Source: a virus. Taken from it: a stretch of DNA of 64,000 nt. The DNA is taken from IMG/VR virus record IMGVR_UViG_3300037587_000923, positions 18,046 through 82,045 of that record; one strand, written 5' to 3'. The position numbers and the translations under genes were made by a program. Below the pieces are notes generated by a model, which worked only from the letters and a program-made list of their open reading frames with translations, was not told the DNA's origin and did not search any database. Each line of letters begins with the position of its first letter. The first letter of the stretch is position 1. This document shows, piece by piece, positions 1-56,168 of this stretch.

Positions 1-1
1 A

Positions 2-561: not shown

Positions 562-565
562 CATT

Positions 566-3586: not shown

Positions 3587-3608
3587 AAATTTAGGAAAGG
3601 AGGAGATT

Positions 3609-3926: not shown

Positions 3927-3930
3927 GATT

Positions 3931-4488: not shown

Positions 4489-4536
4489 ATCTTTAGCCTG
4501 CCCTTGAATTATCGAGGGCAGCACTAAGGATTTATT
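4484..4536. other. Long intergenic hairpin
   Basis: AATAAATCTTTAG-CCTGCCCTTGA / TCGAGGGCAGCA-CTAAGGATTTATT imperfect inverted repeat. Confidence 0.6.
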
Positions 4537-4553
4537 AAAGAAAGGAGGTTGCT

Positions 4554-4877: not shown

Positions 4878-5472
4878 AGATTATTACAAGATACTTGGGA
4901 TAAAGAAGGGTGCCACGCGAGATCAGGTCAGGAGAGCTTATAGAGTCCTCTCTAAGAACCATCACCCTGACGTCAATGGTGGCGACAGTGATGAGTTCCT
5001 TAAGATAAAGAAGGCTCACGACGTACTGCTTGATCAAAAGGGCCGTAAGTTTTACGATACTTATGGATGTGAGGAGGGAGGCGAGAAGTTCAAGAATGTA
5101 GTAGCGACATTCAGAAATATCATTAAGTCTCTTATGAAAAAATACAGACCGGAAGAGCTCCCTTATCAGATCGAAAAAACAATAGTGTCGACCATAAGCA
5201 AGTATGAGAGTGATATCAGGAGAGCAGAGGAGGGCATCGCGGGACTGGAGATGACATTAACCAAACTAAGAAAGGGCAGTGCCAACAAGGACCTTCTTAA
5301 GTTGGCCACTGAGACACTCATCGATGATAACAAGGCGGCTATAGCGGCAAGCAACAATCACCTCGATATCCTTAATACCATGAAGAAGATAGTCGAGGGG
5401 TATGACATCCAATATCCGGAAGCTTCTCGGCATAATACTTGGAACCTGTCGTCAACGACTGGGACAATGTAG
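4870..5472 (+). CDS. J-domain (DnaJ N-terminal) protein
   Basis: DYYKILG...AYR.LSK.HHPDVNGG...F..IKKA..VL, intact HPD. Confidence 0.9.
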   Translation: MDRDYYKILGIKKGATRDQVRRAYRVLSKNHHPDVNGGDSDEFLKIKKAHDVLLDQKGRKFYDTYGCEEGGEKFKNVVATFRNIIKSLMKKYRPEELPYQIEKTIVSTISKYESDIRRAEEGIAGLEMTLTKLRKGSANKDLLKLATETLIDDNKAAIAASNNHLDILNTMKKIVEGYDIQYPEASRHNTWNLSSTTGTM

Positions 5473-9633: not shown

Positions 9634-9645
9634 GTCATTGTCTCC

Positions 9646-10059
9646 TTATCGACTTGCTTCGACATTAATGTTAAGATTACCAGATCTCGGCACAACTCTC
9701 AAATTACTAATAACAGGATCTTCGTCAGCAAACTTATAGTATGCTCCGCCTGGAATAGGTATGCCATTCATTGTGCTATTATTATCGAATGTGTAGTTTG
9801 GACTGGCATAGATAATAATACTTCCGTTATTTTTTATCCAACCTTTGTCGGCAGGTACGCCCATGTCCCTCAGAAAGTCAAACTCCAAAGTAGTAGTTGA
9901 AGTCACATTTTCATAGTGTTGTCTGATTATTGATCGATTTACCGAGCTATCAACAATATACCCGGTTACGTCCTTGGATTCAGCCATGGTTGTGAATAGA
10001 AGTGCGATCGCTATGGCCATAAATAATCCGCATGTTAATTTGTAGTCTGTCAGTTTCAT
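9646..10059 (-). CDS. Signal-peptide beta-sandwich protein
   Basis: N-terminal hydrophobic signal, RBS GGAGG. Confidence 0.55.
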   Translation of the reverse strand: MKLTDYKLTCGLFMAIAIALLFTTMAESKDVTGYIVDSSVNRSIIRQHYENVTSTTTLEFDFLRDMGVPADKGWIKNNGSIIIYASPNYTFDNNSTMNGIPIPGGAYYKFADEDPVISNLRVVPRSGNLNINVEASR

Positions 10060-36873: not shown

Positions 36874-37700
36874 GTAAGGATACTTATCTGGAAGGGTATG
36901 ATGCGGTGGCGGGAAAGAAGGAGTACATTACGTCATCTCAGATAGCTTCATTCTGTGAATGTGGAGTGGAATACCTCCGCAGGTATATTATGAAGGAGAA
37001 GACGGGCTACGGTTCTGCAGCAGCCTACGGAACAGCAGGGCACTATGCTGAGAATGAGATTAGTCTTCGCCCTAAAATAATCACCAAGAAAGATATGCCT
37101 CTCGATGTCGTTCAGGATGCGTTTAGAGACCACCTTCAAAGCATCAAGGGTGATATAAGATGGAACAAGAAAGAGAGGAAGGAGGGCGTAAGGAAGCTAT
37201 GGAGGGGGATGCAAGATGGCGGGATCATCGCAATGGAAAAGCTACATCTTGAGCTTGCCCCTAAAATTCAACCCATCTCCATCGAGGCCAAAATAAGAAT
37301 ACCCCTCAAGGACTTCCCTAAAGATATACTTGGCACTTGGGATATCGAATGCAGGAGAGATATCTGGGACTGGAAGTTTAAGGGTAAGACTCCAAACCAA
37401 GCTGATGCAGACGCCAATATAGGCTTTACTATCTACAATGCTGCCAAAAAAATTAACGATGGTATAGCGCCGCGCCACCTCCATATGGCAGGGATAGTCA
37501 AGCTTAAAAGAGGGCCAAAGACTTTCGACATTATCACTAAGAGGAATGACGATGATTTCCACAGGGTTCTTCTTACTGTCAATAAGATTCAAAAGTCTAT
37601 TGAGGCCGGGATCTTCCTTCCGGCCTCCCCATTATCGTGGAAATGTAGCCCAAATTGGTGTGATTTTTTTGAGACATGCACGGATAGGATCAAGAGGTAG
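36870..37700 (+). CDS. PD-(D/E)XK (RecB/Cas4-like) exonuclease
   Basis: S.SQI..F..C; G...H; GTWD...DWK; C-terminal W.C...WC.F...C. Confidence 0.8.
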   Translation: MSKDTYLEGYDAVAGKKEYITSSQIASFCECGVEYLRRYIMKEKTGYGSAAAYGTAGHYAENEISLRPKIITKKDMPLDVVQDAFRDHLQSIKGDIRWNKKERKEGVRKLWRGMQDGGIIAMEKLHLELAPKIQPISIEAKIRIPLKDFPKDILGTWDIECRRDIWDWKFKGKTPNQADADANIGFTIYNAAKKINDGIAPRHLHMAGIVKLKRGPKTFDIITKRNDDDFHRVLLTVNKIQKSIEAGIFLPASPLSWKCSPNWCDFFETCTDRIKR

Positions 37701-37703
37701 TCA

Positions 37704-38267
37704 TTGCCTAAGATTTATAAACACAAAGGTAAACTCACGGTCAGCATTAACGGGAATCATGTCAGACTAAAAGATCTTGCTAAGGAAGCTGGTATCTCTT
37801 GGGACACTGTCAGAACTCGCCGTTTCAACGGTATGGCTGAAACCCTAGAAATGGCTTTAAAGCCACCAAAAGGTATGGGTCAATAGTACCTTTCTAGTGG
37901 GTATCCAGCTGTTACTATTAACGGAAACCCAAAACACCTACATATCATAGTTGCAGAGAATGCATTGGGTCGGAAGTTGGGAGGAAAAGAAGAGGTTCAC
38001 CATTTTAACGAGGATAGGTGTGATTTTAGAAATAAGAATCTGGTGATATGTGATGGTAGAGAATACCACCTGTTGTTACACAGAAGAAGGGCTGCATTAA
38101 AAGCTACTGGCTATGCAAGCTCTAGGCGCTGCAAGATTTGTAGAAAATGGGACACCTTGGAGAGTGACGATCTTTATATCGACCCTAGCGGCAAGACTGT
38201 TTTTCACAAAAGCTGCAGAAGGCTGAAACGCAAATCAAAACGAAACACTAAACAGGAGGAAGTATAA
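37704..38267 (+). pseudogene. HNH endonuclease interrupted by an in-frame TAG
   Basis: TAG at 37884-37886; the same frame continues ...HIIVAENALGRKL..EEVHH.N.D..D.R..NL. Confidence 0.7.
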
Positions 38268-39403
38268 TGGAAAAAAATAAGGGTCTACAGCTAGTAGATA
38301 AAAAAGAAATGGCAGGGGGTGGTGGCTTTTCTCTTGCTCCAAGTAATCTAGGGGAGGCAATGGAGTTCGCCAAGATGATGGCTAATACAGACATGGTCCC
38401 TCGAGACTACGCTGGAAAACCTGCCAACATAATGATAGCTGTCCAGATGGGAGCCGAGATCGGCCTTAAACCGATGCAAAGCTTACAGAACATATCTGTG
38501 ATCAACGGCAGGCCTAGCGTGTGGGGAGACACCGCAATTGCATTAGTCAGGGTTCACCCTGACTGTGAGTCCATCAATGAATACCTTCTCGATAAAAATG
38601 GTAATAAGACCACTGGTACCGATTACGACACTGCAGTTTGTGTAGTGAAGAGGGCTGGCCAAGACGAAGAGATTAGGACTTTCAGCCTCGCTGACGCCAA
38701 AAAAGCCAGACTTATTGGTAAAACAGGGCCATGGTCTACTCACGAGAAGAGGATGTTGCAGCTGCGAGCTAGAGGTTTTGCTCTCCGTGATGTTTTTCCT
38801 GATGCATTAAAAGGCCTAGCGATTGCAGAGGAAGCTCAAGACTTACCACCTCGAGACATCACTCCTGCCAGGGAAGAAGTATTGACTCCCGAGTTCGATG
38901 TGCCCGTCATAGACACCGGCCGTAGTGTTATGGTTGAGGAGGTTGCCAATGAAGAAGTAGTTGATGCCGCCACTGGAGAGATCACTGAGGGGTCAGAGCA
39001 GAAGTCTGAGTCTGCCAAGATCGAGGATGACGACGCTCTCGATGCAACCGTTACCGGCATGATCGATCGTATTGAGAATATCGGTAATAAGTTCGAGGGG
39101 GATAACTGGCTGACCAAACATAGCTCTGAAATCAACAAGCTTCCGGAAGATGCCAAGGAAGTTGTTATGAACAACTACAAGGGGAAAATGGAAGATCTGG
39201 CATCGGAGGGTGTGGCCAAGGAAGAGGGATCAAAAGGTGACGAAGACTCCCTTGTTCTTGACTACATAAAGAAGCTGGAAAAACCTAAGAGCCTGGAGGA
39301 GCTTGACGCTATATTTGACGAGGCCCAGAATAAAATAAAGACCGGCGCAAAGGTTGTCGCCCTTCGTAAGGTTAGAGACAAGAAGGCACAGGATTTTAAG
39401 TAA
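38267..39403 (+). CDS. RecT-like single-strand annealing protein
   Basis: G.EIGL.PMQSLQNI.VINGRPS.WGD; W......ML..RA..FALRD.FPD.L.G. Confidence 0.85.
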   Translation: MEKNKGLQLVDKKEMAGGGGFSLAPSNLGEAMEFAKMMANTDMVPRDYAGKPANIMIAVQMGAEIGLKPMQSLQNISVINGRPSVWGDTAIALVRVHPDCESINEYLLDKNGNKTTGTDYDTAVCVVKRAGQDEEIRTFSLADAKKARLIGKTGPWSTHEKRMLQLRARGFALRDVFPDALKGLAIAEEAQDLPPRDITPAREEVLTPEFDVPVIDTGRSVMVEEVANEEVVDAATGEITEGSEQKSESAKIEDDDALDATVTGMIDRIENIGNKFEGDNWLTKHSSEINKLPEDAKEVVMNNYKGKMEDLASEGVAKEEGSKGDEDSLVLDYIKKLEKPKSLEELDAIFDEAQNKIKTGAKVVALRKVRDKKAQDFK

Positions 39404-39527
39404 CATTGGCATTGAGGGGCCGCCGGATTGATGGCAACCTCTTTCAAAAACTGAGTGGCGGGGAAAGCCGACTCCTGTAAAAATCAGACAGATGTTTAGG
39501 CGGTCACTCTCGAATAACTGGTTATGA
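39398..39527 (-). repeat. attC-like site A1
   Basis: TAAC..ATTGAGGGGCCGCC / GGCGGTCACTCTCGAAT..GTTA; extra C on the minus-strand left arm. Confidence 0.75.
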
Positions 39528-39543
39528 AACTTGGAGGTAGAAA

Positions 39544-39744
39544 ATGAACACTACAGAGCAACGCATGGCGGCAATATTTAACGAGTGGGCAAAACGTTAT
39601 TCTGAGAACCCTGACGCTTTCGGGCCTATATTTGATGATGAGGGGAAGCCGGTCACCGACTATGGAGTAAGATGCGCACGCTATTTCAAAAAGGTAGCCG
39701 ATGAAATGGACAGCAAGGGGATATTACCCGCACCTGTTTCATAA
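39544..39744 (+). CDS. Cassette gene, hypothetical
   Basis: Bracketed by GTTATGAAAC / GTTTCATAAC (10-bp perfect complement). Confidence 0.7.
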   Translation: MNTTEQRMAAIFNEWAKRYSENPDAFGPIFDDEGKPVTDYGVRCARYFKKVADEMDSKGILPAPVS

Positions 39745-39801
39745 CGCTTGAGGTAAGCGGAACGAGCGTAGCGAGTTTCCCACTTGAGCGAATTGTTATG
39801 T
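39739..39801 (-). repeat. attC-like site A2
   Basis: TAACGCTTGAGGTAAGCGGAA...TTCCCACTTGAGCGAATTGTTA; closely similar to A8. Confidence 0.8.
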
Positions 39802-39822
39802 TGAAACTTTTAACTATAGGAG

Positions 39823-40155
39823 ATGCTGATAATGACACCTGAAATTAATAAAAAATATTTAATTACGACCGATAATTGGTTTTTGGCACCTGATGGGAAT
39901 AGTTATCGCGCAGTATTTGGAACTGTCATAGGAATACAAACAGACGAAAATACATTGGGAGTTAAAACGAATAGAAGCTCGACAAACTGGTATGTTGCTA
40001 TCGGGAATATGTTGATCGCTGGTTGTCAAATACATTATGTAATCCAAGTGGATGAGGTAAGCTTTAACGCACCTAATAGAGAAATAGAGCACGATGGTAA
40101 ATTAACTAAAGAGAGGGAAAGCATAACAAGAATATATAATGCCGATGAAACATAA
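39823..40155 (+). CDS. Cassette gene, phage-type hypothetical
   Basis: TTDNWF.APDG..YRAVFG motif; GTTATGTT / AACATAAC brackets. Confidence 0.7.
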   Translation: MLIMTPEINKKYLITTDNWFLAPDGNSYRAVFGTVIGIQTDENTLGVKTNRSSTNWYVAIGNMLIAGCQIHYVIQVDEVSFNAPNREIEHDGKLTKERESITRIYNADET

Positions 40156-40348
40156 CGATTGAACTAAACTGCGGCGAAAGGAGAATATCATGAAATGGGA
40201 ATGTGGAAATTGTGGACACAAGGTTACTGAAAAAGAAACTGTTGAAGGTGGGAATAAAGAATGGAAATGCCCTAAATGTTCTAATATCAATAAGCATGAA
40301 AAAAAGAAAAGCGCGTTGAGCCGTCAGATTTGAGTGACTGGGTTAGGC
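40150..40348 (-). repeat. attC-like site A3 (loop encodes an ORF)
   Basis: ACTAAACTGCGGC versus minus-strand ACT[C]AAA[T]CTG[A]CGGC. Confidence 0.8.
40190..40333 (+). CDS. 47-aa Zn-ribbon peptide inside the attC loop
   Basis: RBS AAGGAG; MKWECGNCGH...WKCPKCS. Confidence 0.65.
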   Translation: MKWECGNCGHKVTEKETVEGGNKEWKCPKCSNINKHEKKKSALSRQI

Positions 40349-40371
40349 CGCACGAACCTTAGGAGGTAAGT

Positions 40372-40560
40372 TTGGAAAAGCCAGAATATTTAAAAGATGA
40401 ACATTTAAAATATCTAAATGAGCTGAAAGAAACCAAAATGGTACCCATGTTTGGAGCAGCATCTACCTTGAGATTATATTATGATTATCTGACAAAGGAG
40501 CAAGCCAGGAAAATATTAGCCTATTGGATAGACACATTTCAAGAGAGACATGCGGCATAA
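40372..40560 (+). CDS. Cassette gene, hypothetical
   Basis: NMFGA-like motif (PMFGAA..L); GTTAGGCCGCA / TGCGGCATAAC brackets. Confidence 0.65.
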   Translation: MEKPEYLKDEHLKYLNELKETKMVPMFGAASTLRLYYDYLTKEQARKILAYWIDTFQERHAA

Positions 40561-40757
40561 CAATTGAACTGTGCCGCTTGCAAAATTAAAGGAGAAAACC
40601 TATGAGTGGAGTTATAGACTTACCCTGTGGATGCACAATGGATGATTATTCAGGACTAGCACTTTATGTTTGCCAAGCGTGTAGAGAGCGCAAGAAGAGG
40701 CAAGAGACTTCAGAACGCGACAGCGTTTTGCAAGTCGGAACCAGTGATGGGTTAGAC
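40555..40757 (-). repeat. attC-like site A4 (loop contains a gene start)
   Basis: ACTGTGCCGCTTGCAAAA versus minus-strand ACT[G]GTTCCG[A]CTTGCAAAA. Confidence 0.75.
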
Positions 40758-40916
40758 TGCCCCCTTTGTGCGAAGATGGGGCCGAAAGAAGTTTATGAAA
40801 AGTGGGGCTTTGATTATGAAGCAAGATATAAAGACACATGCAAAGCGCATAGACCGCTAATGCTTGAGAGAATGGAAGATGGACTGAACAAGTTGAAAGA
40901 GCTTCTGGCAGACTAA
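40602..40916 (+). CDS. Cassette gene starting inside the attC, Cys-rich
   Basis: RBS AAGGAG in the loop; reads through the arm; GTTAGACTGCC / GGCAGACTAAC brackets. Confidence 0.65.
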   Translation: MSGVIDLPCGCTMDDYSGLALYVCQACRERKKRQETSERDSVLQVGTSDGLDCPLCAKMGPKEVYEKWGFDYEARYKDTCKAHRPLMLERMEDGLNKLKELLAD

Positions 40917-41272
40917 CAAGACAAGCTAAGGGGCTTGAACGAACGCAGTGAGAGAAAGTCCAAGGAGTGAAACGACTGTCTTTGAGCGCCTGGGTTATGT
41001 TTTTTGATATGACAGGGCAAAAAATCGGAGGTTATTATGGACGACATAGCAATAAATGAAGGTCAAAAGATATTTGAAGAAAGATATAAAAAGGGATTTC
41101 CAAAAGTGATATTTGGGGAGACGCACATCTCAATTCCTTGCACTTGCGACGATGGCGGTGGGCCTATTCACTGGGCAACAGTGCAGAACAACATAAGATC
41201 GATAGAAGAACATTTCCGGCATGAGGAGACTTTGCGTGAATTAAGGAAAATGGATAGGGACAAAACATAACG
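40914..41272 (+). repeat. Duplicated unit copy 1 (attC A5 plus 77-aa gene 41037-41270)
   Basis: 359 bp that read identical to 43242-43600. Confidence 0.9.
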
Positions 41273-41355
41273 TTGCCCTTAACCCGCACCTGAGCCAAGT
41301 TCCTATGAAATTGGAGACACCTTTAGGTGTCGGTGGTTCAAGGGCTTGGTTATAA
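41265..41355 (-). repeat. attC-like site A6
   Basis: GCCCTTAACCCGCACCT versus minus-strand GCCCTT[G]AACC[AC]CG[A]CACCT. Confidence 0.8.
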
Positions 41356-41376
41356 AACTTATCTTACGGAGGACTT

Positions 41377-41544
41377 ATGAAAGCTGAAATAAAGAAAGAT
41401 GGATTTATTTGGATAACCGCTGAAGACGCAACAGAGGCATTCGCGCTTAATCATTTAGTGCCAGTTGGTGACAAGGCGGAGGTGTGTAAAGAGTGCAACC
41501 AGGTTAAAATACCCGTTGTTATAGATGCGAGCGTATTAAACTAG
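41377..41544 (+). CDS. Cassette gene, 55 aa
   Basis: RBS GGAGG; GTTATAAAACT / AGTTTTATAAC 11-bp perfect brackets. Confidence 0.65.
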   Translation: MKAEIKKDGFIWITAEDATEAFALNHLVPVGDKAEVCKECNQVKIPVVIDASVLN

Positions 41545-41550
41545 GCAGTT

Positions 41551-41611
41551 TTATAACGAACAAGTTAAAGGGACGCTGGAACAGCGTTCCGCTTTGAACG
41601 CCTGGTTCTGA
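41551..41611 (-). repeat. attC-like site A7
   Basis: GTTAAAGGGACGCTG / CAGCGTTCCGCTTTGAAC; ends in GTTC. Confidence 0.8.
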
Positions 41612-41636
41612 GGCGTGTAACTTAAAAGGAGAAGAC

Positions 41637-41768
41637 ATGAGACTGATAATTTTAACACTTGGAATATGGGCATTGATGCATGTTGGATTTGACTTCGACT
41701 GGATGAGGGTTTTATGGACTATGGGGCTGACTGTTTATGCCGCATGGTATGATTTAATAAAGCCTTAG
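41637..41768 (+). CDS. Cassette gene, 43-aa membrane peptide
   Basis: RBS AAGGAG; GTTCTGAGGC / GCCTTAGAAC compensatory brackets. Confidence 0.6.
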   Translation: MRLIILTLGIWALMHVGFDFDWMRVLWTMGLTVYAAWYDLIKP

Positions 41769-41825
41769 AACGCCTGAGGTAAGCGGAAGCCGGAACGGCT
41801 TTCCGACTTGAGCGATTTGTTAGTT
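41765..41825 (-). repeat. attC-like site A8
   Basis: GAACGCCTGAGGTAAGCGGAAGCC...GGCTTTCCGACTTGAGCGATTTGTTA. Confidence 0.8.
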
Positions 41826-41855
41826 TGGATCTTGACTTTAAGGAGAGGCGACTAA

Positions 41856-42707
41856 ATGGCAAGAATTAAGTATACACAATGTATGGTAAGAGACTGCGAA
41901 AAGCCCCATCTATCTAAAGGCTTCTGTAATAGGCATTATCAGCAAATGTGGAAGCATGGACGCATTCTGCCTGATGCGGTGCCTATTGAAGACTTGGCCG
42001 GAGAGTTATGGGCTGACATTGAAGAGGCTGAAGGGTATCAAGTTAGCAATATGGGGCGTGTTAAGTCTCTTGTGGGCCGTGGCGGGTTAATAAAGCCACA
42101 GATCGAACAAAGGGGGCACATGAATACCCCTAAGAAGCGTGTCTATTTAGACAGGAGGGCAACAAGAGGCTGGGTTAAATTCTTGTATGTTCACCTAGAG
42201 GTAGCCAGGGCCTTTATCCCTAATAAGTTTGACAGCGCCCACACGACCTTTAAAAACGGGGATGCCTTAGACTGCCGTGCTGATAATATCGAATGGTGGT
42301 GGGAGAATCCACCTGTAGATGATGATGGGTTGATTCAGTTTAGAAAGTCGGTTCATTCTGAATTAGGGAAAAAGGTTCTGGCCTTTATTGATGGCAACCA
42401 GTCTGCCCTCGATAGTTTCGTAATGCAAAAGACTGACAAGATGAGGAAAATACTACAGAGTAAATTCAAAGGGGTCTGCGGAGACAATGTAAACGAAGCG
42501 GTGCACGTTGCTTTCAGTGAAGGCATGAGAGACATTAAACGCGGATTGCTTAGGGCAGACACACATATAGAAAACTGGTTCCTTCGGATTGCAGAGAACC
42601 AACTATTGGATGATATTAAAAAGAACAAGCACACTACATCTCAATGGGGCTGCAATGGTAATGGCGACGAGTTCGACAAATTTGATTTAATGGCGGCAAC
42701 AAACTAA
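41856..42707 (+). CDS. Cassette gene: Zn-finger + NUMOD4/degenerate HNH + sigma region-2-like domain
   Basis: C.V.DC.....KG.C.RHY; E.W..I...GYQVSN.GRVKS; VH..VA.AFIPN; NW..RIA.N..LD. Confidence 0.65.
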   Translation: MARIKYTQCMVRDCEKPHLSKGFCNRHYQQMWKHGRILPDAVPIEDLAGELWADIEEAEGYQVSNMGRVKSLVGRGGLIKPQIEQRGHMNTPKKRVYLDRRATRGWVKFLYVHLEVARAFIPNKFDSAHTTFKNGDALDCRADNIEWWWENPPVDDDGLIQFRKSVHSELGKKVLAFIDGNQSALDSFVMQKTDKMRKILQSKFKGVCGDNVNEAVHVAFSEGMRDIKRGLLRADTHIENWFLRIAENQLLDDIKKNKHTTSQWGCNGNGDEFDKFDLMAATN

Positions 42708-42788
42708 CTATGAATTAACCAGTGGCCCGACCAAGCCACACTGAAAACGGACACGCCTCTTGCCATCTGGTTGAATGGCGTGTTATAA
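42702..42788 (-). repeat. attC-like site A9
   Basis: ATTAACCAGTGGC versus minus-strand ATT[C]AACCAG[A]TGGC, the canonical extrahelical pattern. Confidence 0.85.
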
Positions 42789-42812
42789 ATTTTGCATTAG
42801 GAGGGTAATTAG

Positions 42813-43244
42813 ATGAGAGGATATGCGTGTATAGGGTTGGATAACCCCAAGGCGGCAGTTAACGTAGGATCGGCTTTGAGAGCCGCAGGGTGCTATGGGG
42901 CTGCAATGGTGGCTATGACGGGCAACCGGAGCGGAAAGACACCCACTGACACCATGAAGCAGTATCGACATAGGCCGTTGTTGCGCGTTGAAAATTTGAA
43001 AGATGTTATTCCTTATGACTGCGTGCCTGTGGCAGTTGATTTGATAGAGGGAGCTATTCCATTGCCAGAGTATGAACACCCCGAAAGAGCCTTTTATATC
43101 TTCGGGGCTGAAGATGCCACCCTGGGCGAAAGAGTGACATCTTGGTGCAGGGACACTATATATATTCCCACTAACGGTTGCATGAATCTAGCAGCAACGG
43201 TTAATGTGGTGCTATATGACCGGCTTGTTAAGCAAAATTTATAA
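42813..43244 (+). CDS. Cassette gene: SpoU/TrmH-family RNA methyltransferase
   Basis: NPK...NVGSALRAA; IFGAED; IP...CMNLAATVNVVLYDR; 14-bp perfect brackets GTTATAAATTTTGC / GCAAAATTTATAAC. Confidence 0.85.
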   Translation: MRGYACIGLDNPKAAVNVGSALRAAGCYGAAMVAMTGNRSGKTPTDTMKQYRHRPLLRVENLKDVIPYDCVPVAVDLIEGAIPLPEYEHPERAFYIFGAEDATLGERVTSWCRDTIYIPTNGCMNLAATVNVVLYDRLVKQNL

Positions 43245-43600
43245 CAAGACAAGCTAAGGGGCTTGAACGAACGCAGTGAGAGAAAGTCCAAGGAGTGAAA
43301 CGACTGTCTTTGAGCGCCTGGGTTATGTTTTTTGATATGACAGGGCAAAAAATCGGAGGTTATTATGGACGACATAGCAATAAATGAAGGTCAAAAGATA
43401 TTTGAAGAAAGATATAAAAAGGGATTTCCAAAAGTGATATTTGGGGAGACGCACATCTCAATTCCTTGCACTTGCGACGATGGCGGTGGGCCTATTCACT
43501 GGGCAACAGTGCAGAACAACATAAGATCGATAGAAGAACATTTCCGGCATGAGGAGACTTTGCGTGAATTAAGGAAAATGGATAGGGACAAAACATAACG
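43242..43600 (+). repeat. Duplicated unit copy 2 (attC A10 plus 77-aa gene 43365-43598)
   Basis: Reads identical to 40914-41272. Confidence 0.9.
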
Positions 43601-43635
43601 ATTGACTATATGGACATTTAATGTTGGTGTGAATT

Positions 43636-44007
43636 GTGAATAAGTATTATAAGCAAGTAAAATATAGACAGAATCAGAGAGATAAAAAAGAATGTTACCG
43701 TTTAAATTCTACTGATACGATTAGGGAATCTTATTATCAGCCACCTGAATTTAGAGGATTGAGGATATATGGAGATTGTGATCTCGGTTATCTTAGACTT
43801 ATTTACATTTCTCTATGGGAATGTGGACGTTTAGATTCCTATTACATACGCAACGAAAAAGTAGAAAATATTGGTAAGCGTCCAAAATTAAATGATGACA
43901 ATAGCGATTGGTGGATTGACAGTAATGGAAATCGTAAAAAATATGGCAAGGTTAATCTTGATAAGAAAATAAGAGAACTGATGCCGAATATAAGGAGGGC
44001 GGATTGA
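43636..44007 (+). CDS. Hypothetical protein
   Basis: AT-rich ORF coupled to the next gene. Confidence 0.5.
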   Translation: MNKYYKQVKYRQNQRDKKECYRLNSTDTIRESYYQPPEFRGLRIYGDCDLGYLRLIYISLWECGRLDSYYIRNEKVENIGKRPKLNDDNSDWWIDSNGNRKKYGKVNLDKKIRELMPNIRRAD

Positions 44008-44504
44008 TGAATTGCTTCCTAGGTAGGGTATACGACGACAAGCATGCCACTTGCATTTCCTGTATTAGGGCAGGAGAGAAGACTTGTAAGCAGGTCAAGA
44101 AGAAACGTAAGGCCCACGATATTCATACAGTTATGGCTGAAGGCAAGTGGCTTATGTGTACTAAAGACCTCAGAACCCCTAATGACTGGACCAACAAGAT
44201 GTACGGTAAGAAGATTTATAGGGGAGAGAGGTCTGCCTGGGAGAAACAGTTCAGAGGGATAATCCATTTATGGGGTAAGGCGTCAGGTAAGAGGCGCCTT
44301 ACCGTTATACGGTATGTTCCTGACAAGCGGTATCTCATGAAAGATAAGACCAATAGAGAGGGAGCCATGAAGCCTCTTGAGGATGCGCTTGTTAATCAAG
44401 GAGTACTTGTTGACGACAGGGATGAGTTCCTGGAGCGTGCCGACCTCAGGCAAGAGATAGATCCGGCAAGAGTAGGGGTAGCTATCTTAGTGGAGGATAT
44501 TTAG
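44004..44504 (+). CDS. RusA-like Holliday junction resolvase
   Basis: D..N.....K...DAL...GVL.DD motif. Confidence 0.7.
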   Translation: MMNCFLGRVYDDKHATCISCIRAGEKTCKQVKKKRKAHDIHTVMAEGKWLMCTKDLRTPNDWTNKMYGKKIYRGERSAWEKQFRGIIHLWGKASGKRRLTVIRYVPDKRYLMKDKTNREGAMKPLEDALVNQGVLVDDRDEFLERADLRQEIDPARVGVAILVEDI

Positions 44505-44787
44505 GCATGCTGAAAAAAAATTGCCTGGAGATAGTAATATATGACGACAAAGGCAATAGGTGTTGTTTTTCTCTTGACACCCTTTTCATTACTTTGATAG
44601 GGTGCGCTTACATTCCAATTTAACCTTTTGACAGAGGTACGAAGGATCAAATGAAAACCACTTTTAAACATAGAGAAGCCCACTCGAGCCAGAGCAATCT
44701 GGAGCAGGTCCCTTTTGGTCCACCTGTCTGTCAACTCGTGTGGGCTTCTGTGTGTTTAGCCCAATCCCAAAGAAATAAAGGTGTTAT

Positions 44788-47790: not shown

Positions 47791-47915
47791 ATATAACATT
47801 GAGTTCAGCAGGACCGGATTGAAAGCAAACACATTGGAAGAGGGAATGAACATGAAAGGCTTTTTGATTAAAATTAAAAACAGTGTTAGGGATCGGCTGC
47901 AACGTGGGGTTATTT
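47791..47915 (-). repeat. attC-like site B1
   Basis: TAACATTGAGTTCAGC / GCTGCAACGTGGGGTTA; minus strand reads GTT[G]CAGC. Confidence 0.65.
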
Positions 47916-48148
47916 GCGAATATGAGGCAGATAGATTATGGATCATTACAAGCTGGAGCTGGTGGAGGCACAACCACGGGATGCCATTTTGGAAGGCAGT
48001 GCGATGGACTTTTATGACCGATGTGTGGGACAAAATAGATAATTTTTATTGTGGAATATGGTTGCAGACAAGGGGCCGCTATTTACATTGGAAAGTTGAA
48101 AAGCAAAAAGTTGAAATATGGAAGCGAATTAAAGAGAAAAGCAAATAA
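47846..48148 (+). CDS. Cassette gene starting in the attC loop, Trp-rich
   Basis: GTTATTTGC / GCAAATAAC brackets; reads through the arm (DRLQRGV). Confidence 0.55.
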   Translation: MNMKGFLIKIKNSVRDRLQRGVICEYEADRLWIITSWSWWRHNHGMPFWKAVRWTFMTDVWDKIDNFYCGIWLQTRGRYLHWKVEKQKVEIWKRIKEKSK

Positions 48149-48185
48149 CCAGACGATGATTCCTTCGGAATATCGCGGGTTATTT
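48143..48185. repeat. Mini attC-like hairpin B2
   Basis: TAACCAGACGATGATTCC-TTC-GGAATATCGCGGGTTA. Confidence 0.55.
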
Positions 48186-48215
48186 GCCGAACACAAATTA
48201 ATAAAGGAGACCAGA

Positions 48216-50996: not shown

Positions 50997-51036
50997 GCGG
51001 GCTAACATAACAGCTTGAGATAAGAGGAGGACGGCA

Positions 51037-51294
51037 ATGAAAGGGACAGTAATGGTGGATGGTGAGGAGTATGAAATAGTACCGTTAAGTGGGGAAACCC
51101 TCAAGGAGCATTTCGGAAAGTTGCTCGATTTGCCGAGAAGTAATCATTGCGTAGATTTAAGGGAGCCAGTGGTTATCGCGGTTAAAAGAAGTGATGGTGC
51201 TACTGAATATTTACATTGCAGCAGTATCGGGGGAGGATGTAGAAGACATGATGGCAAGGGCAATTACTCATTTATTGTTGGAAAAAGAAGATAA
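51037..51294 (+). CDS. Hypothetical protein
   Basis: RBS GAGGAGG after a TAAC half-site. Confidence 0.55.
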   Translation: MKGTVMVDGEEYEIVPLSGETLKEHFGKLLDLPRSNHCVDLREPVVIAVKRSDGATEYLHCSSIGGGCRRHDGKGNYSFIVGKRR

Positions 51295-51438
51295 AACATT
51301 TTTTGTGCCGTGCAATAGACAAGGGCATATATTCCATGAGCATCAAAAGCAATTTGAAAAGATACCTGAATACCACAGGTGCAAAGTATGTGAAAGACAC
51401 CTGAATAAAATTAAAGACCGTTTGTTATAGAGAAGCAA

Positions 51439-51500
51439 ACATAATGATTAAGCTAAACCGCCGCGCCATTTGCGGTCGGATTTTCAGCGCCTTGTTATGG
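51439..51500 (-). repeat. attC-like site C1 (core AAC mutated to AAT)
   Basis: GCTAAACCGCCGC / GCGGTCGGATTTTCAGC..GTTA. Confidence 0.7.
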
Positions 51501-51528
51501 CGCACTTACCCTAAAGAGAAAGGAAAAA

Positions 51529-51893
51529 GTGATGGAAAAAATAGAAGTAAGTTTAGAACCTTTAGTCAGATTGCTTGGAGCAGTGAGTGGGCCACCACAT
51601 TTAATTAGAGAACTTCAGGCGACAAGAGGCCCGTTGGTTGGCGATGACAATCCGATAAATATTTTGATAGATGAATATAACAAAGTGATTAAAAAGAAAG
51701 GAGGTGATGTAAATTGAGTTATTCATTGAATCACCCTTGTGGGGATTGCACCAAGGCGGATAAGTGTAATGATCGACACTTTATCCAAGGTGGAATCAAC
51801 GGGATACATGACGTATACCCGTCTGAAAAAGGGCATCTCGGTAGTGGCACCGTAACTATTGAATGTTCGCAGCATGAAACAAAAGAAAAGTAG
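51529..51893 (+). CDS. Two-gene cassette cargo (51529-51717 and 51714-51893)
   Basis: GTTATGGCGCA / TGCGCCATAAC 11-bp perfect brackets. Confidence 0.6.
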
Positions 51894-51924
51894 TAATTTG
51901 GCGCGGCCTTGTAATGAGGCTGCG

Positions 51925-52048
51925 CCATAACGCTATTATCAGCGGCCGCATTTAGAAAGGAAACTTATGGACAAGAAAACGACACCAGAAAGCAACACAG
52001 ATCAATTAAGCACCGTGGTTAGCGGTCGGTTGCATAAATTGGTTATGA
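51925..52048 (-). repeat. attC-like site C2 (loop contains a gene start)
   Basis: TATCAGCGGCCGC versus minus-strand TAT[G]CAACCG[A]CCGC. Confidence 0.75.
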
Positions 52049-52263
52049 GACCAGGCCCCGGATGGCATCACTTAGGCGGCGCAGTATGGCAACATGATAA
52101 TGGATCTAAAATACATGTTGGTGGCTTGATGGTATACCCCCATAACGGGGAAATAATAAGGCACTGGGAGCAGCTTGAAATAGTGAATAAGCTTATCAAA
52201 ATTAACGGTGGGAATAGAAAGCGTGGATTAATGGCATGGGCCATGAACTTAGCGGTGTCATAA
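51967..52263 (+). CDS. Cassette gene starting in the attC loop
   Basis: Reads through the arm (SGRLHKLVM); GTTATGAGACC / GGTGTCATAAC brackets. Confidence 0.65.
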   Translation: MDKKTTPESNTDQLSTVVSGRLHKLVMRPGPGWHHLGGAVWQHDNGSKIHVGGLMVYPHNGEIIRHWEQLEIVNKLIKINGGNRKRGLMAWAMNLAVS

Positions 52264-52306
52264 CACTTAGCTCTCCGAAGGAGGAGCGTTGAGGTTATGT
52301 TGCTCA
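52260..52306 (-). repeat. Mini-attC repeat copy 1
   Basis: 47 bp identical to 55751-55797. Confidence 0.85.
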
Positions 52307-52464
52307 CGGAATTAACAGAGAGGAAGCATGGAAGACGAGATAGAGGACGGGGTAACAATAAAGACCAACGTGCCAGTCAAGGAGTTTCTTGTCGATGCTT
52401 TAATAAATTTGGGTATGCTCTTGCTGGGAATAGTACTAAGTAAAATATTTTAAGGAGGTTGTGA

Positions 52465-52764
52465 GTGACTGAATTTGATTTCGATATAAATGAGGAGTTG
52501 GAGGAGATCAAGGTAAGCTCCCTCCTTCGTAGCGTTACAGAGAAAGGCAGGGCCCTTCTCTTGAAGAGATTACTGGGGCCCCTTCTGACGCCTGGCATAT
52601 TAACTCCCAAGGAAGCGGCATTCTTCTTCCTAAACGCCGCGCTTGATAAAAGCCCCAAGATGATAGCTAAGAGCTTTAAGTGTGACCTGTCCGGGGTCTA
52701 CTCTATCCTCAGCAAGGCCGAGAATAAGATAAGGGAACATAGGAAAAACAATGAACGGATATAG
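52465..52764 (+). CDS. Sigma region-4/LuxR-like HTH protein
   Basis: LTPKE...IA........V...L.KA..KIR. Confidence 0.6.
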   Translation: MTEFDFDINEELEEIKVSSLLRSVTEKGRALLLKRLLGPLLTPGILTPKEAAFFFLNAALDKSPKMIAKSFKCDLSGVYSILSKAENKIREHRKNNERI

Positions 52765-53383
52765 AGCAAGGATCGATATGATCGGAAAGATATTCGGGGC
52801 ATTAACAGTGATAGGGTTCAGCTATAAAGATAAATTCAATAAAGCTCGCTGGAACTGCCGGTATGAATGTGGTTCCGGGAAAATTGCTGAAGGCTCAAAA
52901 TTACGCAAAGGTGAAATAAAGTCTTGTGGTTGTCTTACGGTAAAATTAATAAGCAAAGGCTTGACCACTCATGGCATGTCAAAAAGCAAAATATATAAAA
53001 TTTGGTCAAGCATGAAAAATAGATGCAATAACCAAAGAGATCCAGCTTATGTTTGGTATGGAGGTAGAGGCATAAAGATCTGTGCCCGCTGGATGAAGTT
53101 TGAGAACTTCCTTATTGATATGGGAGAGCGCCCAGATGGCATGTCTATAGAACGCAAAGACAACAATGGCAACTACGAGCCTGAAAATTGCAAGTGGGCG
53201 ACAAGAGAAGAGCAGGGAAGAAACACAAGCCGTAATGTTTTTATCACATTCAATGGCGAAACACTCCACACATCAGAGTTTGCTAGGAAAGCAGGGATGA
53301 GCCCAGCCTGCTCGCACAGTAGATTAAGGTATGGTTGGCCCATAGAAAGGGCTCTCAATGAGCCGGTAAGAAAACGGCAATAA
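52751..53383 (+). CDS. HNH homing endonuclease
   Basis: KSCGC; W..MK.RC; YGGRGI; SIERKDNNGNYEPENC.WAT..EQ.RN. Confidence 0.85.
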   Translation: MNGYRARIDMIGKIFGALTVIGFSYKDKFNKARWNCRYECGSGKIAEGSKLRKGEIKSCGCLTVKLISKGLTTHGMSKSKIYKIWSSMKNRCNNQRDPAYVWYGGRGIKICARWMKFENFLIDMGERPDGMSIERKDNNGNYEPENCKWATREEQGRNTSRNVFITFNGETLHTSEFARKAGMSPACSHSRLRYGWPIERALNEPVRKRQ

Positions 53384-53551
53384 GGAGGTAAAGTTGAACG
53401 GGAAGAAATCGAAGAAAATTAATGATCTAGCAAGGAGCCTACTCGCGGAGGTAGCTGCCAAGGATATATCAGAAGAAGAGAGGACCCTTGTGTTGAGTGA
53501 GATACGAAAGAAACTAAAGCGAGACTATAAGGCTGGGAGATTGGTGTTTAA

Positions 53552-53830
53552 ATGAAAGACATTGTAATAATAGAGGGCCTCAGGAAAGAAACCTTTCTCT
53601 ACAAAGACGCTATCTCTGAAGCGATAAAGAAGTTGGGGGAGAGTCACCCGGTCGCATCTAAACTTGGAAGGGTTCTCAAGCTGGCCAAGTATCAGCCTAT
53701 TCCTTGTAAGAGATGCGGGCGCACCCTAAGGAACCCCAAGGCCATACAGAGAGGCATGGGTCCCAGGTGCTACGAGATACATATTGAAGAGTCTCAGAGT
53801 GATATATCTTTCAAGAAGGAGACCGTATGA
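53552..53830 (+). CDS. DUF6011-like zinc-finger protein
   Basis: CKRCGR.L.NP..I.RG.GP.C. Confidence 0.7.
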   Translation: MKDIVIIEGLRKETFLYKDAISEAIKKLGESHPVASKLGRVLKLAKYQPIPCKRCGRTLRNPKAIQRGMGPRCYEIHIEESQSDISFKKETV

Positions 53831-54096
53831 GTAAGCGCGAAAAGAGACTTGGACTCCTCTATGAGGATGATATCAAGTATTCGAAAAGTGAAATCGCCGA
53901 GATGTGGTTTCACTACAGGGTGGCCAAGCAGTATGCCTGCATGGGAGACGTGTGTGAACGCATAGCTTCCTTTGCTTTAACCGAGCAGGAATTCACCCAG
54001 ATGGATTATAAAGAGAGCGTGCCCTCAAACAGGTCTCCTTACTGGATAGAGACCATTGAAGTGCCAAGGGGCTTCGCAGAGAGGGAGATTTATTGA
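53827..54096 (+). CDS. Hypothetical protein
   Basis: Coupled ORF. Confidence 0.5.
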   Translation: MSKREKRLGLLYEDDIKYSKSEIAEMWFHYRVAKQYACMGDVCERIASFALTEQEFTQMDYKESVPSNRSPYWIETIEVPRGFAEREIY

Positions 54097-54407
54097 TGAT
54101 AGGTTTTCCTAAAGAGAAGACGTTTAGGTCAGAGGAGTATAAGGATTATATCCGGTCGCTCCCTTGTTGTAATCCTAATTGCCCCAATCATGGCCGCTTA
54201 CCTAGCGAGGCTCATCATACTGAAAAATCCGGGACTGGCTGTAAAGGATCTGACCTTAGCTGTATTCCTCTCTGTTGTCATTGCCATGTGCCTGGCGTTC
54301 ACACCATGGGTCACATCACGTTTCAGCAGCGCAACAATGTGGACTTCAACAAAGTGCAAATCAAGTGTTTGTCTGGCTTTATAGAGAAGGAGTTGATTAA
54401 TGATTAA
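54093..54407 (+). CDS. DUF968/HNH-like nuclease
   Basis: R.E.Y..YIR.LPC...EAHH...G...K.SD...IPLC..CH. Confidence 0.75.
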   Translation: MMIGFPKEKTFRSEEYKDYIRSLPCCNPNCPNHGRLPSEAHHTEKSGTGCKGSDLSCIPLCCHCHVPGVHTMGHITFQQRNNVDFNKVQIKCLSGFIEKELIND

Positions 54408-54765
54408 GGATGTAACCCCGGTAGTATTCTTAGTTGATAATAAAAAACACGCCATAACCCTTAATTCGTTTGAGCTTGTATATAAGAACTCTCCCATGGA
54501 GCGCACCGAGATAACGGGAGAGATATCGTTTATGGCCGTAGACCACCAACAGAAAATACTAATATCCAAGCCCATGCTAGTTATTCACCTAGGGACCTCA
54601 GTGCTAACGGCTGTCATTAAGGAATACGCTATTCTCCACAACAGCTTGATGAATTCTGGTATGACATCAGCTGCCACCTCATCAGAGTGTAGAGTAGAGT
54701 ATGAAGTTATAGACGAAGAAGAAAGAGACCCTTTCATCGCAGCAGTGGAGGAGGCCGTCTCGTGA
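54400..54765 (+). CDS. Hypothetical protein (C-terminal FIAAVEEAVS)
   Basis: Coupled ORF. Confidence 0.55.
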   Translation: MIKDVTPVVFLVDNKKHAITLNSFELVYKNSPMERTEITGEISFMAVDHQQKILISKPMLVIHLGTSVLTAVIKEYAILHNSLMNSGMTSAATSSECRVEYEVIDEEERDPFIAAVEEAVS

Positions 54766-55052
54766 CATTGGAGCTTTTTAAAATACCAGAGCATGTCAAG
54801 GCTCGGCAAGCCAACCCCAACCCTATGGTGAGGAAGGGCGGAATCCTCAAAGGATATAAGTGTGGTAAATGTGAGCATCTCCTAGTCACCGAAAGCCCGG
54901 CAGGTAAGAGATTTTTCAAGTGTCGCCATAGGGGCGTTACTAGCGGAGCAGCGACAGACCACAGAAAGGGATGGGATGCCTGTGTATTGTATTCCGAGGA
55001 AGGCGAACTCCCTTTCGTCACAGAAGTCAGGAGGGCCAGTGCCAGCCACTAA
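54762..55052 (+). CDS. Zn-finger phage protein
   Basis: CGKC.H...KC......ATDHR..W.AC. Confidence 0.65.
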   Translation: MTLELFKIPEHVKARQANPNPMVRKGGILKGYKCGKCEHLLVTESPAGKRFFKCRHRGVTSGAATDHRKGWDACVLYSEEGELPFVTEVRRASASH

Positions 55053-55293
55053 ATCTAATTACGGCAAGAAGGTCGAAAGTCTCGATGACCTCCATAAGCT
55101 AGTCCAGGCGAGGAGGGCCGTGATCTGTCCCGGGAACAACGGCGCCATAGTACCAAATACAAACGTGGCAGCAGCGTGGGTCTTTAACTTAAACGGAGGC
55201 TCGTTATATAGAGTATTTAAAGCCGGCCTCTATACCTACGAGAAGGTCGATAAGTTTATAAAGGCAGTCGAGGAGGCTGTTGAGTCAACATAA
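54976..55293 (+). CDS. Hypothetical protein (C-terminal FIKAVEEAVEST); stop codon forms the cluster D entry site
   Basis: ORF track; true start probably the downstream GTG. Confidence 0.55.
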   Translation: MPVYCIPRKANSLSSQKSGGPVPATKSNYGKKVESLDDLHKLVQARRAVICPGNNGAIVPNTNVAAAWVFNLNGGSLYRVFKAGLYTYEKVDKFIKAVEEAVEST

Positions 55294-55498
55294 CATGGGA
55301 ATTCAGGGGCTTTTGCCGACAGGAGGAGATGGAAAGATGGATAAGTGTGAAAATAAAAAATGCCCAGACAATGATGACTGGTGCAGTAAAGGATGCAGAA
55401 GTATAAGCATGAGCATGTCGATAGGCCATTGCCCAGATTACCTTACAACTAAAAAAGATCCATCGGCAGAAAGTCCAGCCTGCAATGTGGGGTTATAA
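55288..55498 (-). repeat. attC-like site D1 (loop encodes a 53-aa Cys-rich ORF, 55337-55498)
   Basis: ATTCAGGGGCTTTTGCCGA / TCGGCAGAAAGTCCAGCCTGCAAT. Confidence 0.75.
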
Positions 55499-55501
55499 AT
55501 T

Positions 55502-55747
55502 ATGTGTGATTGGAATAACACGGTAGTTTTGGAAACTGCAAGCGGAAAGAAAGTGGACGTTGATGGCTGTATAGCACCCCTTGTAAGCGCCTTAAATGCC
55601 GCTGGCATAGAAACGATAGCTTGCTGCTGTGGACACGGAAAACGCCCCGGCAATATAGCATTAAAAGACAAGAGAGAATTAATTATTGCACCAGACTACA
55701 AAACAGGGAGAGAAATTGACAGGGCGTTTCCCCCTATAAACGATTAA
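55502..55747 (+). CDS. Cassette gene, conserved-looking hypothetical
   Basis: VD.CIAPLV.ALN.AGI.T.ACCCGHG; GTTATAAATTA / TAATTTATAAC brackets. Confidence 0.7.
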   Translation: MCDWNNTVVLETASGKKVDVDGCIAPLVSALNAAGIETIACCCGHGKRPGNIALKDKRELIIAPDYKTGREIDRAFPPIND

Positions 55748-55750
55748 TTT

Positions 55751-55797
55751 ATAACACTTAGCTCTCCGAAGGAGGAGCGTTGAGGTTATGTTGCTCA
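55751..55797 (-). repeat. Mini-attC repeat copy 2
   Basis: Identical to 52260-52306; partial third copy at 56111-56129. Confidence 0.85.
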
Positions 55798-55907
55798 ACT
55801 TAAGATAGGGGCATGAGGCCCAGAGGAGGCAACCAAACTCAAACAATACCGTGTTGGCGGTCTGTTTGAACGCTTGGTTGGGCAGCATTTAATGAGAGGG
55901 GTAAGCG

Positions 55908-56078
55908 ATGAAAAGAGTAGAGTATAAGTACGACATTGACCAGAAAGTAAAAACACCATTTGGAGAGGAGGGTATTGTTTCGATGCTTGGCTTTGATGAA
56001 GCTGGCAATCAGTATCATGTGAAGACTGCCAATGACAGCCAGTGGTTCAAGGAAAAACAACTCACCGAAACAGATTGA
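55908..56078 (+). CDS. Cassette gene, 56 aa
   Basis: GTTGGGCAGC / GCCGCCCAAC brackets; preceded by a half attC (minus strand CCCAACCAAGCGTTCAAACAGACCGCC). Confidence 0.6.
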   Translation: MKRVEYKYDIDQKVKTPFGEEGIVSMLGFDEAGNQYHVKTANDSQWFKEKQLTETD

Positions 56079-56168
56079 TGCATTCTGGGCGGTGGCTAAG
56101 GCTGCCGCCCAACACTTAGCTCTTCGAAGCAATATCGCCCACAAACTTTAGCAACCAGGAGGAAGAGG

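Follow-up and report, generated by a model that had tools for sequence, protein, structure and literature searches.

The 64,000-nt stretch analysed here (the window) comprises bases 18046 to 82045 of the 82,045-bp IMG/VR virus record IMGVR_UViG_3300037587_000923 and contains, at 39398-43616 on the + strand, an array of ten consecutive units that each pair a hairpin with a gene (cluster A; positions are those of the window unless marked 'record', and clusters B, C, and D are further groups of sites in the same record). The record is linear, 72% complete according to CheckV, and has a GC content of 45.4%. Its PHROG matches, which include tape measure, head maturation protease, RecT, exonuclease, and DnaB-like helicase, identify it by predicted function as a tailed phage, in agreement with an earlier note, written from the DNA letters alone, that had placed an integron-type cassette array inside a phage genome. 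One marine-sediment sequencing run (X1) contained 0.99 of the sampled words of the record and may be where the DNA came from; a run from a second marine-sediment study (X2) contained 0.17 of them.

The array starts directly after the RecT stop codon, and its units follow one order from 5' to 3', comprising an imperfect AAC...GTT hairpin, 23 to 43 nt with a strong ribosome site, an ORF (open reading frame), and an AAC box, the single exception being a unit whose ORF begins within its hairpin. All ten hairpins (39398-43328; named S0, S1, S2, and S4 to S10, the prefixes B and C being used for sites of those clusters) had AAC at the start and GTT at the end. The left box ended in TAAC in eight of ten and the right box began with GTTA in nine of ten, while the stop codon lay 1 nt before the C of AAC (TAA/C) in eight of the ten units. 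Hairpins spanned 61 to 203 nt, S2 and S4 both being about 200 nt long with ORFs in their loops, a layout that recurred at 47791-47917, 51925-52048, and 55289-55498. Unpaired spacers measured roughly 3 to 11 nt, a wider range than the 5 to 7 nt proposed in the earlier note, whose ten units after RecT, AAC and GTT outer boxes, and quoted pairs of complementary boxes were otherwise all present in the sequence.

The boxes tie each gene to its own pair of flanks. Cognate boxes, those of one gene, were complementary at a mean of 6.9 of 8 positions beyond the fixed GTT and AAC, compared with 3.23 of 8 for non-cognate pairs (standard deviation 1.37, n = 88) and 3.1 of 8 for both boxes of one hairpin as placed in the array. 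Cognate box complementarity is thus beyond chance, and the first bases of each phage cassette are complementary to its last. In integron cassettes, the first and last bases are complementary because both come from one attC site in the circular form. Units 5 and 10 formed an exact 359-bp duplicate without substitutions, beginning with TAAC before the hairpin and ending with ACATAACG after the gene. Since the duplicate ends in TAA/C on both sides, the mobile unit is a hairpin together with the gene downstream of it.

Homologs in PHROG families were found for three of the ten cassette proteins, and for these the cargo can be called phage-like, as had been suggested; the remainder had no such match. 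The largest cassette gene, gene 9, encodes a NUMOD4/HNH N-terminal half followed by a C-terminal half with a weak match to sigma-70 region 2 (16 bits). Promoter-like and terminator-like sites were not enriched (14 found versus 16.6 expected, and 8 versus 6.4, respectively), and no + strand terminator-like site lay within a hairpin. The small extra hairpin in S5 and S10 (40922-40937 and 43250-43265) scored as terminator-like on the - strand and might stop antisense transcription into the array. Coordinates are collected in Table 1.

Table 1. Features of the array and of the other site clusters, in window positions unless marked 'record' (R1 and R2, covariance models described in the text; aa, amino acids)
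Feature	Position	Strand	Remarks
Cluster C, two attC-type sites	record 15455-16824	+	just upstream of the window
Site C1, within cluster C		+	R1 70.6 bits, R2 42.3 bits; left box AGC instead of AAC
RecT gene	38267..39403	+	left neighbour of array; TAA stop is part of first AAC box; phrog_561 RecT-like, 180 bits
Site S0, 130 nt, imperfect AAC...GTT hairpin	39398..39527	+	arm duplex -12.5 kcal/mol; missed by R1 and R2
Cassette gene 1, 66 aa	39544..39744	+	boxes GTTATGAAAC / GTTTCATAAC; weak phrog_32159 match
Site S1, 63 nt, attC read as bottom strand	39739..39801	+	R1 76.9 bits; R2 44.8 bits, E 1.7e-9
Cassette gene 2, 107 aa	39832..40155	+	phrog_22562, 84 bits
Site S2, 199 nt	40150..40348	+	13-bp arm duplex; 3 single-base bulges, all in 3' arm
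47-aa zinc-ribbon ORF in S2 loop, complete, with ribosome site	40190-40333	+	weak zinc-ribbon Pfam matches
Cassette gene 4, 62 aa	40372..40560	+	boxes GTTAGGCCGCA / TGCGGCATAAC
Site S4, ~200 nt	40555..40757	+	arm duplex -16.1 kcal/mol
104-aa ORF, begins in S4 loop and runs through 3' arm	40602-40916	+	
Site S5, 90 nt, second inner AAC box and small extra hairpin	40911..41000	+	inner part 8.6 bits with R1
Duplicate copy 1 (359 bp): site S5 and 77-aa gene (41037-41270)	40914..41272	+	
Site S6, 91 nt	41265..41355	+	clean fold, paired R boxes, 3-nt spacers; minimum free energy -18.4 kcal/mol
Cassette gene 7, 55 aa	41377..41544	+	boxes GTTATAAAACT / AGTTTTATAAC
Site S7, 61 nt	41551..41611	+	R1 67.2 bits (seed member); R2 14.3 bits, E 0.19
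Cassette gene 8, 43 aa, hydrophobic	41637..41768	+	
Site S8, 61 nt	41765..41825	+	R2 38.1 bits, E 9.8e-8
Cassette gene 9, 283 aa, NUMOD4/HNH homing-endonuclease-like	41856..42707	+	PF07463 33.5 bits; phrog_959, phrog_59
Site S9, 87 nt	42702..42788	+	arm duplex -11.2 kcal/mol; bulge in 3' arm
Cassette gene 10, 143 aa, SpoU-family RNA methyltransferase	42813..43244	+	PF00588 54.8 bits; boxes perfectly complementary over 14 nt
Duplicate copy 2 (359 bp), last unit: site S10 and 77-aa gene (43365-43598)	43242..43600	+	
Right array end: AAC box and 5'-arm-like stretch, no 3' arm or GTT partner	43593..43616	+	best partner duplex -7.0 kcal/mol
Cluster D, two AAC...GTT sites around 109-aa ORF	47791..48188	+	boxes GTTATTTGC / GCAAATAAC
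Cluster B, at least 6 sites	51003..56113	+	
Site B2	~51438-51501	+	R1 66.2 bits, R2 27.7 bits
Cluster B site with ORF in loop	55289-55498	+	
Site B6, within cluster B	55793-55883	+	R2 11.6 bits
Cluster B site, within the span of the B6 match	55827-55883	+	
Truncated cluster B end	56113	+	

Comparison of S1 with 72,556 plasmid records yielded five matches, at 75 to 77% identity over at least 90% of the site. In the four records inspected, the match was the attC site of blaBEL-1 or aadA1 in class 1 integrons, with arms and boxes in common; such sequence homology to established attC sites extends to the S1/S8/S7 family only. A covariance model (R1) was built from five short phage sites of one family, in their + strand reading; it rests on these five and misses other sites because MAFFT failed to align the differing loop lengths. 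When four class 1 loci were scanned with R1 (33 kb, both strands, filters off), 11 attC sites were found, every one of them immediately 3' of a cassette gene and on the bottom strand; nothing else was reported at E<=5, top strand included. The cassettes concerned were aadA1 (twice), aadB, aac(6')-Ib4, cmlA, blaBEL-1 (three times), dfrB6, an IMP gene, and GES-5. A surrogate attC model (R2) was then derived from those 11 class 1 sites only, an approach that is partly circular in that R1 picked the sites, while their places behind known cassette genes are independent of either model. Scanned with R2, the phage matched on the + strand at S1, C1, S8, and B2 (E 1.7e-9 to 5.5e-5) and weakly at S7 (E 0.19) and B6 (E 1.1), with no matches on the - strand.

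Arm duplexes of S4 and S6 (-16.1 and -15.6 kcal/mol) were more stable than the lowest value in a shuffled genome (-14.5 kcal/mol), and the genome held 40 AAC...GTT pairs at -12 kcal/mol or below compared with 18 in the shuffle, a noisy scan. A 9-mer box scan with one mismatch was swamped by chance matches, and minimum-free-energy folds of whole sites frequently favoured local hairpins over the attC fold. Bulges occurred in the 3' arm of S2, S4, S6, S7, S9, B2, B5, and C2, as in real attC bottom strands, and S6 had no unpaired base in its 5' arm versus four in its 3' arm. Collectively, the homology and the reciprocal models support the assignment of the hairpins to the integron attC type, as the earlier note had put it, for the site family that could be tested in this way. 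With ten sites within 4.2 kb and no IntI integrase in the record, the array has the makeup of an attC-site cluster without an integrase (CALIN).

Integrons are regarded as a bacterial device, and their promoterless cassettes are read from the promoter Pc, so that the orientation of the gene relative to attC is considered fixed. The attC bottom strand is the strand folded and cut by IntI. In the phage, the + strand, which codes for all ten genes, carries the attC bottom strand: S1 scored 76.9 bits with R1 on the + strand and 5.9 bits on the - strand, and the plasmid matches to S1 were always on the strand that does not code for the cassette gene, intI1 lying to their right on that matched strand. 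The canonical arrangement, with the ORF on the attC top strand and attC 3' of the gene, was found in none of the ten units. Every gene in the array faces the opposite way, and the joints are compact and co-adapted, with the stop codon in the crossover box, the ribosome site after the GTT box, and some ORFs in loops. Because the 359-bp duplicate begins before a hairpin and ends behind a gene, the hairpin moved with its downstream gene, and this extent is what a cut at the 5' AA/C of the bottom strand yields.

As a control, a strand-neutral two-arm pattern led to 19 bacterial loci with the same attC type, carried by Xanthomonadales, Desulfobacterales, Nitrospirota, Methylophilaceae, and others, and holding 86 R2 matches. 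When matches at about E<0.05 were used and segments were left out if they measured under 120 nt or over 2,500 nt or had no 40-aa ORF, the longest inter-site ORF lay opposite the model strand in 47 of 53 segments (12 bacterial array loci) and on it in 6, whereas it was on the model strand in all ten phage units. The CALIN of Tetrasphaera phage TJE1 was canonical too, its three R2 matches all lying on the - strand just behind + strand genes.

Given the polarity of the array, we scrutinized IMG/VR for similar loci. The two-arm attC pattern matched nothing there besides the phage's own record. A 15-base attC 3'-arm motif, sought on both strands, returned at least 80 loci, among which the loci listed held at least 81 R2 matches at a cut-off of E<=0.01. 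In 22 of the listed loci with neighbouring same-strand sites, the longest ORF lay on the model strand in 31 of 48 segments, compared with the 6 of 53 in bacteria. Stop-codon positions told a similar story: the 48 strongest IMG/VR matches among those listed comprised 25 that fitted the reversed layout only, 4 the canonical only, 9 both, and 10 neither, and the corresponding counts for 61 bacterial matches were 4, 21, 22, and 14. An unrelated, GC-richer viral contig, IMGVR_UViG_3300033120_000297, carried seven attC sites at 2700-5400 in the same back-to-front layout, with an AAC box containing the stop, hairpin, GTT box, ribosome site, gene, and cognate boxes, several of the sites having a near-identical hairpin. 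Some IMG/VR loci were canonical (L126 and L128) and may be bacterial fragments or arrays of the TJE1 kind. Relatives of the phage itself were sparse in IMG/VR, where the RecT relatives were only 27 to 28% identical and cassette gene 2 and the exact Xer-like recombinase described below had no relatives. For the 77-aa cassette protein, a single homologue (58% identical) was found.

These data lead us to regard the array as probably an integrase-less attC cluster within the early recombination and replication operon of the phage, built as the mirror image of a bacterial array, with cassettes that would be moved by an IntI of the host. On the gene strand, the unit consists, from 5' to 3', of a C, the hairpin, a GTTRRRY box, a ribosome site, the ORF, and RYYYAA, usually with the stop. 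Expression would proceed by operon read-through with an individual ribosome site for each gene, dispensing with a cassette promoter. Host-supplied IntI, which we infer to act on the + strand, would fold that strand and cleave the 5' AAC box between A and C; units would be excised as circles through attC x attC recombination and re-inserted either at the 3' end of the array or at a different attC, and one such event may have left the 359-bp duplicate that occupies the last position. With the polarity reversed, phage cassettes would be silent in bacterial integrons, as bacterial cassettes would be in the phage, and the two cassette pools could thereby share one enzyme and remain functionally separate.

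Several observations weigh against this account. IntI was absent from the 82,045-bp record, itself 72% complete. The single duplicate is the only trace of movement, and unequal homologous exchange between like hairpins could also yield it. In run X2, an S5-type hairpin was followed by a different downstream sequence (from 40993, just after the GTT box), and the link between hairpin and gene is therefore not absolute. No close relatives were found among INPHARED phages, which precluded a comparison of presence and absence breakpoints. R2 detected S1 and S8 at E<1e-6 and S7 at E 0.19 and missed seven of the ten array sites, leaving the covariance-model check proposed by the earlier note, made here with the surrogate model on both strands, with matches at three array sites, one of them weak; R2 also matches 110-nt attC sites in Luteimonas arrays, so long sites are within its reach. 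The seven missed sites were assigned to attC by boxes, arm pairing, and position. Finally, unpaired stem bases across 16 phage sites numbered 32 in 5' arms and 39 in 3' arms, compared with 8 and 32 in real bottom strands, a weak test.

Contigs of run X2 joined S8-type and S5-type hairpins to other sequences, with breaks at the AAC box (41769 and 43241), a weak sign of modular exchange in a comparison made with short contigs at an 88% likeness threshold. What X2 shows is that related hairpins exist in a second sediment study, and nothing more. Logan contigs end at repeats, and no excision joint was seen in them; a single joint in X2, from 40588 to 40700, had one side of only 27 nt and a likeness below 95% and was discounted. 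The bin at 43640-44303 had little or no depth in run X1, and no conclusion was drawn from it.

An unlikely alternative is that the array is a relic, its attC sites acquired in the past and no longer recombining, with the hairpins retained as spacers or as RNA structures of the transcript. The lack of IntI in the record would fit, as would the proportion of sites missed by the real-attC model and the atypical sites, namely the 200-nt sites with ORFs in their loops, the half-sites with which clusters A and B finish on the right, and the AGC box that stands in for AAC at the outer end of cluster C. Without selection for recombination, however, box complementarity should have decayed, and it is near perfect; the duplicate is exact, and the same hairpin types adjoin other sequences in the second sediment sample.

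A self-contained phage integron, in which the phage supplies its own noncanonical integrase, is an unlikely explanation as well. The only tyrosine recombinase of the record is a 333-aa Xer-like protein encoded on the bottom strand at record 16848-17849, just upstream of the window, which the earlier note had correctly described as free of an integrase; a search of the remaining record, which that note had advised, found this recombinase and no IntI. In its favour, cluster C, whose site C1 is among the best matches to both models, has its closing AAC box 23 nt ahead of the start codon of the recombinase, whose gene is directed away from the array, as intI1 is in class 1 loci. Members of the recombinase family conserve the catalytic residues R, K, H, R, H, and Y, and the best NCBIfam match of the protein is a XerA/'integron integrase' model. 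Its scores, however, fell far below the family cut-offs (27 bits against 265 for TIGR02249 and 55.8 against 220 for NF040815, the archaeal XerA family, its best), and its best PDB match was XerA (4A8E). From the first catalytic Arg to the His of HxLR, it has 83 residues compared with 131 in IntI1; therefore the IntI-specific extra domain, for which there is no room, is missing, and BLASTP aligned the protein with IntI1 only as far as the beta-hairpin lysine. The low family scores and the absent domain led us to reject the recombinase as an IntI, and an intI gene with the family-specific extra domain, the mark of a complete integron, was not found in the record. The recombinase family is rare (nine homologues, 33 to 42% identity), 19 loci with recombinase homologues (73.5 kb) contained no R2 match at E<1, and the closing box of cluster C matched at just 8 of 9 positions.

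Reversed arrays also occurred in five other IMG/VR records, one being 100% complete, none of which encoded any tyrosine recombinase, and IntI above the family cut-off was present in three of five bacterial genomes carrying this attC type, including a Desulfobacterales metagenome-assembled genome (MAG). Since the recombinase is not an IntI, reversed arrays occur in records without a tyrosine recombinase, and carriers of the same attC type possess IntI, supply of the enzyme in trans by the host is favoured. S8 was closest to attC sites of Desulfobacterales (46 of 55 bases) and Nitrospirota (45 of 55) MAGs, a likeness that hints at a possible host in one of these groups.

Very improbably, the hairpins are repeat modules shuffled by homologous recombination rather than IntI substrates. 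Cassettes of promoters and stem-loops are known in T4-type phages, and modules shuffled in this manner would resemble them. Some hairpins are indeed repeated (S5 equals S10, and two copies in cluster B look alike by eye), and the array adjoins RecT and an exonuclease; however, most of the ten hairpins differ in sequence, promoter-like and terminator-like sites show no enrichment, homology links the hairpins to real attC, and the gene-specific complementary boxes would be left unexplained. That assembly wrongly joined a bacterial cassette array to phage DNA in a chimeric contig is scarcely credible: the record comes from a metagenome assembly, Logan contigs break at repeats, and none of the contigs among the matches listed bridges the right junction (43600-43640), but an independent 9,872-nt Logan contig of run X1 covers 37000-40943, passing from RecT into the array without a single difference, X1 depth is equal in array and backbone (~80-98), four separate site clusters lie amid phage genes, and the polarity is opposite to that of bacterial arrays.

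Host-driven movement of reversed cassettes would have consequences beyond this phage. The predominance of reversed polarity in the viral contigs sampled suggests that phages use integron chemistry for an accessory-gene bank of their own, under rules unlike those of the textbook. Tentatively, and with rather less confidence than we place in the reading of the array itself, phages may maintain a mirror-image cassette pool that is moved by bacterial IntI and insulated by its reversed polarity. If so, a phage cassette would lie antisense to Pc once captured by a bacterial integron, and a bacterial cassette taken up by a phage, such as a defence system, would lie antisense to the transcription of that phage. 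This would offer a mechanism, open to test, for the moron-like turnover of genes in the early regions of phages, and it would point to a hidden channel, or else a barrier, affecting how genes pass between the cassette pools of phages and bacteria; annotation pipelines that expect the gene before attC would misplace the boundaries of phage cassettes.

The whole record contained about 20 sites in four clusters, all on the + strand, and the right ends of clusters A, B, and C had no sequence in common. In cluster D, the 109-aa ORF begins in the loop of the first site, of which a copy with 88% likeness and other flanks was present in run X1. Two cluster B hairpins, at 52258-52304 and 55751-55797, look identical by eye and enclose about 3.5 kb of small genes. 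Logan depth in run X1 was near zero at about 52272-55591, between the two hairpin copies, and about 90 on the flanks; the low depth could be a filter artefact or reflect a population variant without the segment, and no joint across it was found in the X1 Logan contigs.

Other features of the record are given for completeness. At 44667-44756 there is a very stable long inverted repeat, whose arm duplex (-21.2 kcal/mol) is the strongest of the whole record; it sits just upstream of a 274-aa ORF (44788) and the DnaB gene and may be an origin or operator. The recombinase gene is followed directly, at about record 17834-18985 (extending into window 1-940), by three consecutive paralogous small proteins of 145, 112, and 124 aa with CxxC...CxxC motifs and a common C-terminal 'AYL..EAMKKA' tail. 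In another viral record, IMGVR_UViG_3300010939_000123, a recombinase homologue with 38% identity (9400-9800) is encoded just downstream of an ORF that, in a translation made by eye, appears to contain a YADD motif like that of reverse transcriptases.

Phage attC clusters without an integrase are already published. Seventeen phage CALINs were reported by Qi et al. 2023 (PMC9892861), and in the assays of that study IntI1 recombined five of six phage attC sites with attI1. Those arrays likewise have attC sites between accessory genes, no intI, and methyltransferases in the cargo. They are smaller, TJE1 having three sites and four ORFs and the minimum for the set being two sites, compared with ten in the present array and about 20 in the record. 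TJE1 is also canonical at all three sites, whereas in the present array every gene is carried by the attC bottom strand, and attC loops contain some of the ORFs. Reversed polarity of phage cassettes was not found in the literature, in a full-text search whose returns were judged by their titles and the opening lines of abstracts; the other 14 phage CALINs in the supplements of Qi et al. 2023 could bear on its frequency. A route by which IntI could seed an array without attI is offered by insertion of cassettes at plain genomic GTT sites (attG), described along with single attC sites (SALINs; Loot et al., bioRxiv 10.1101/2022.09.11.507474), and the right end of the phage array, an AAC without hairpin, fits such an insertion. 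The preprint, in its available text, concerns bacterial genomes and canonical cassettes and does not describe reversed polarity.

The class 1 cassettes aadA1, blaBEL-1, aadB, cmlA, and dfrB6 share with the phage units the RYYYAAC...GTTRRRY boxes, the arms (75 to 77% to S1), the covariance model, and the complementarity of first and last cassette bases. They differ in that the gene lies on the top strand with attC after it, whereas in the phage array the gene lies on the bottom strand with the hairpin before it; moreover, class 1 loci have IntI1, attI1, and Pc adjacent and carry resistance cargo, whereas the phage array is without IntI and its cargo is not of the resistance type. The bacterial chromosomal arrays of the 19 loci have the same attC family (up to 46 of 55 bases), long same-strand arrays, and IntI in three of five genomes, and they are set apart from the phage array by polarity, the longest ORF lying opposite the bottom strand in nearly all of their segments and on it in every phage unit.

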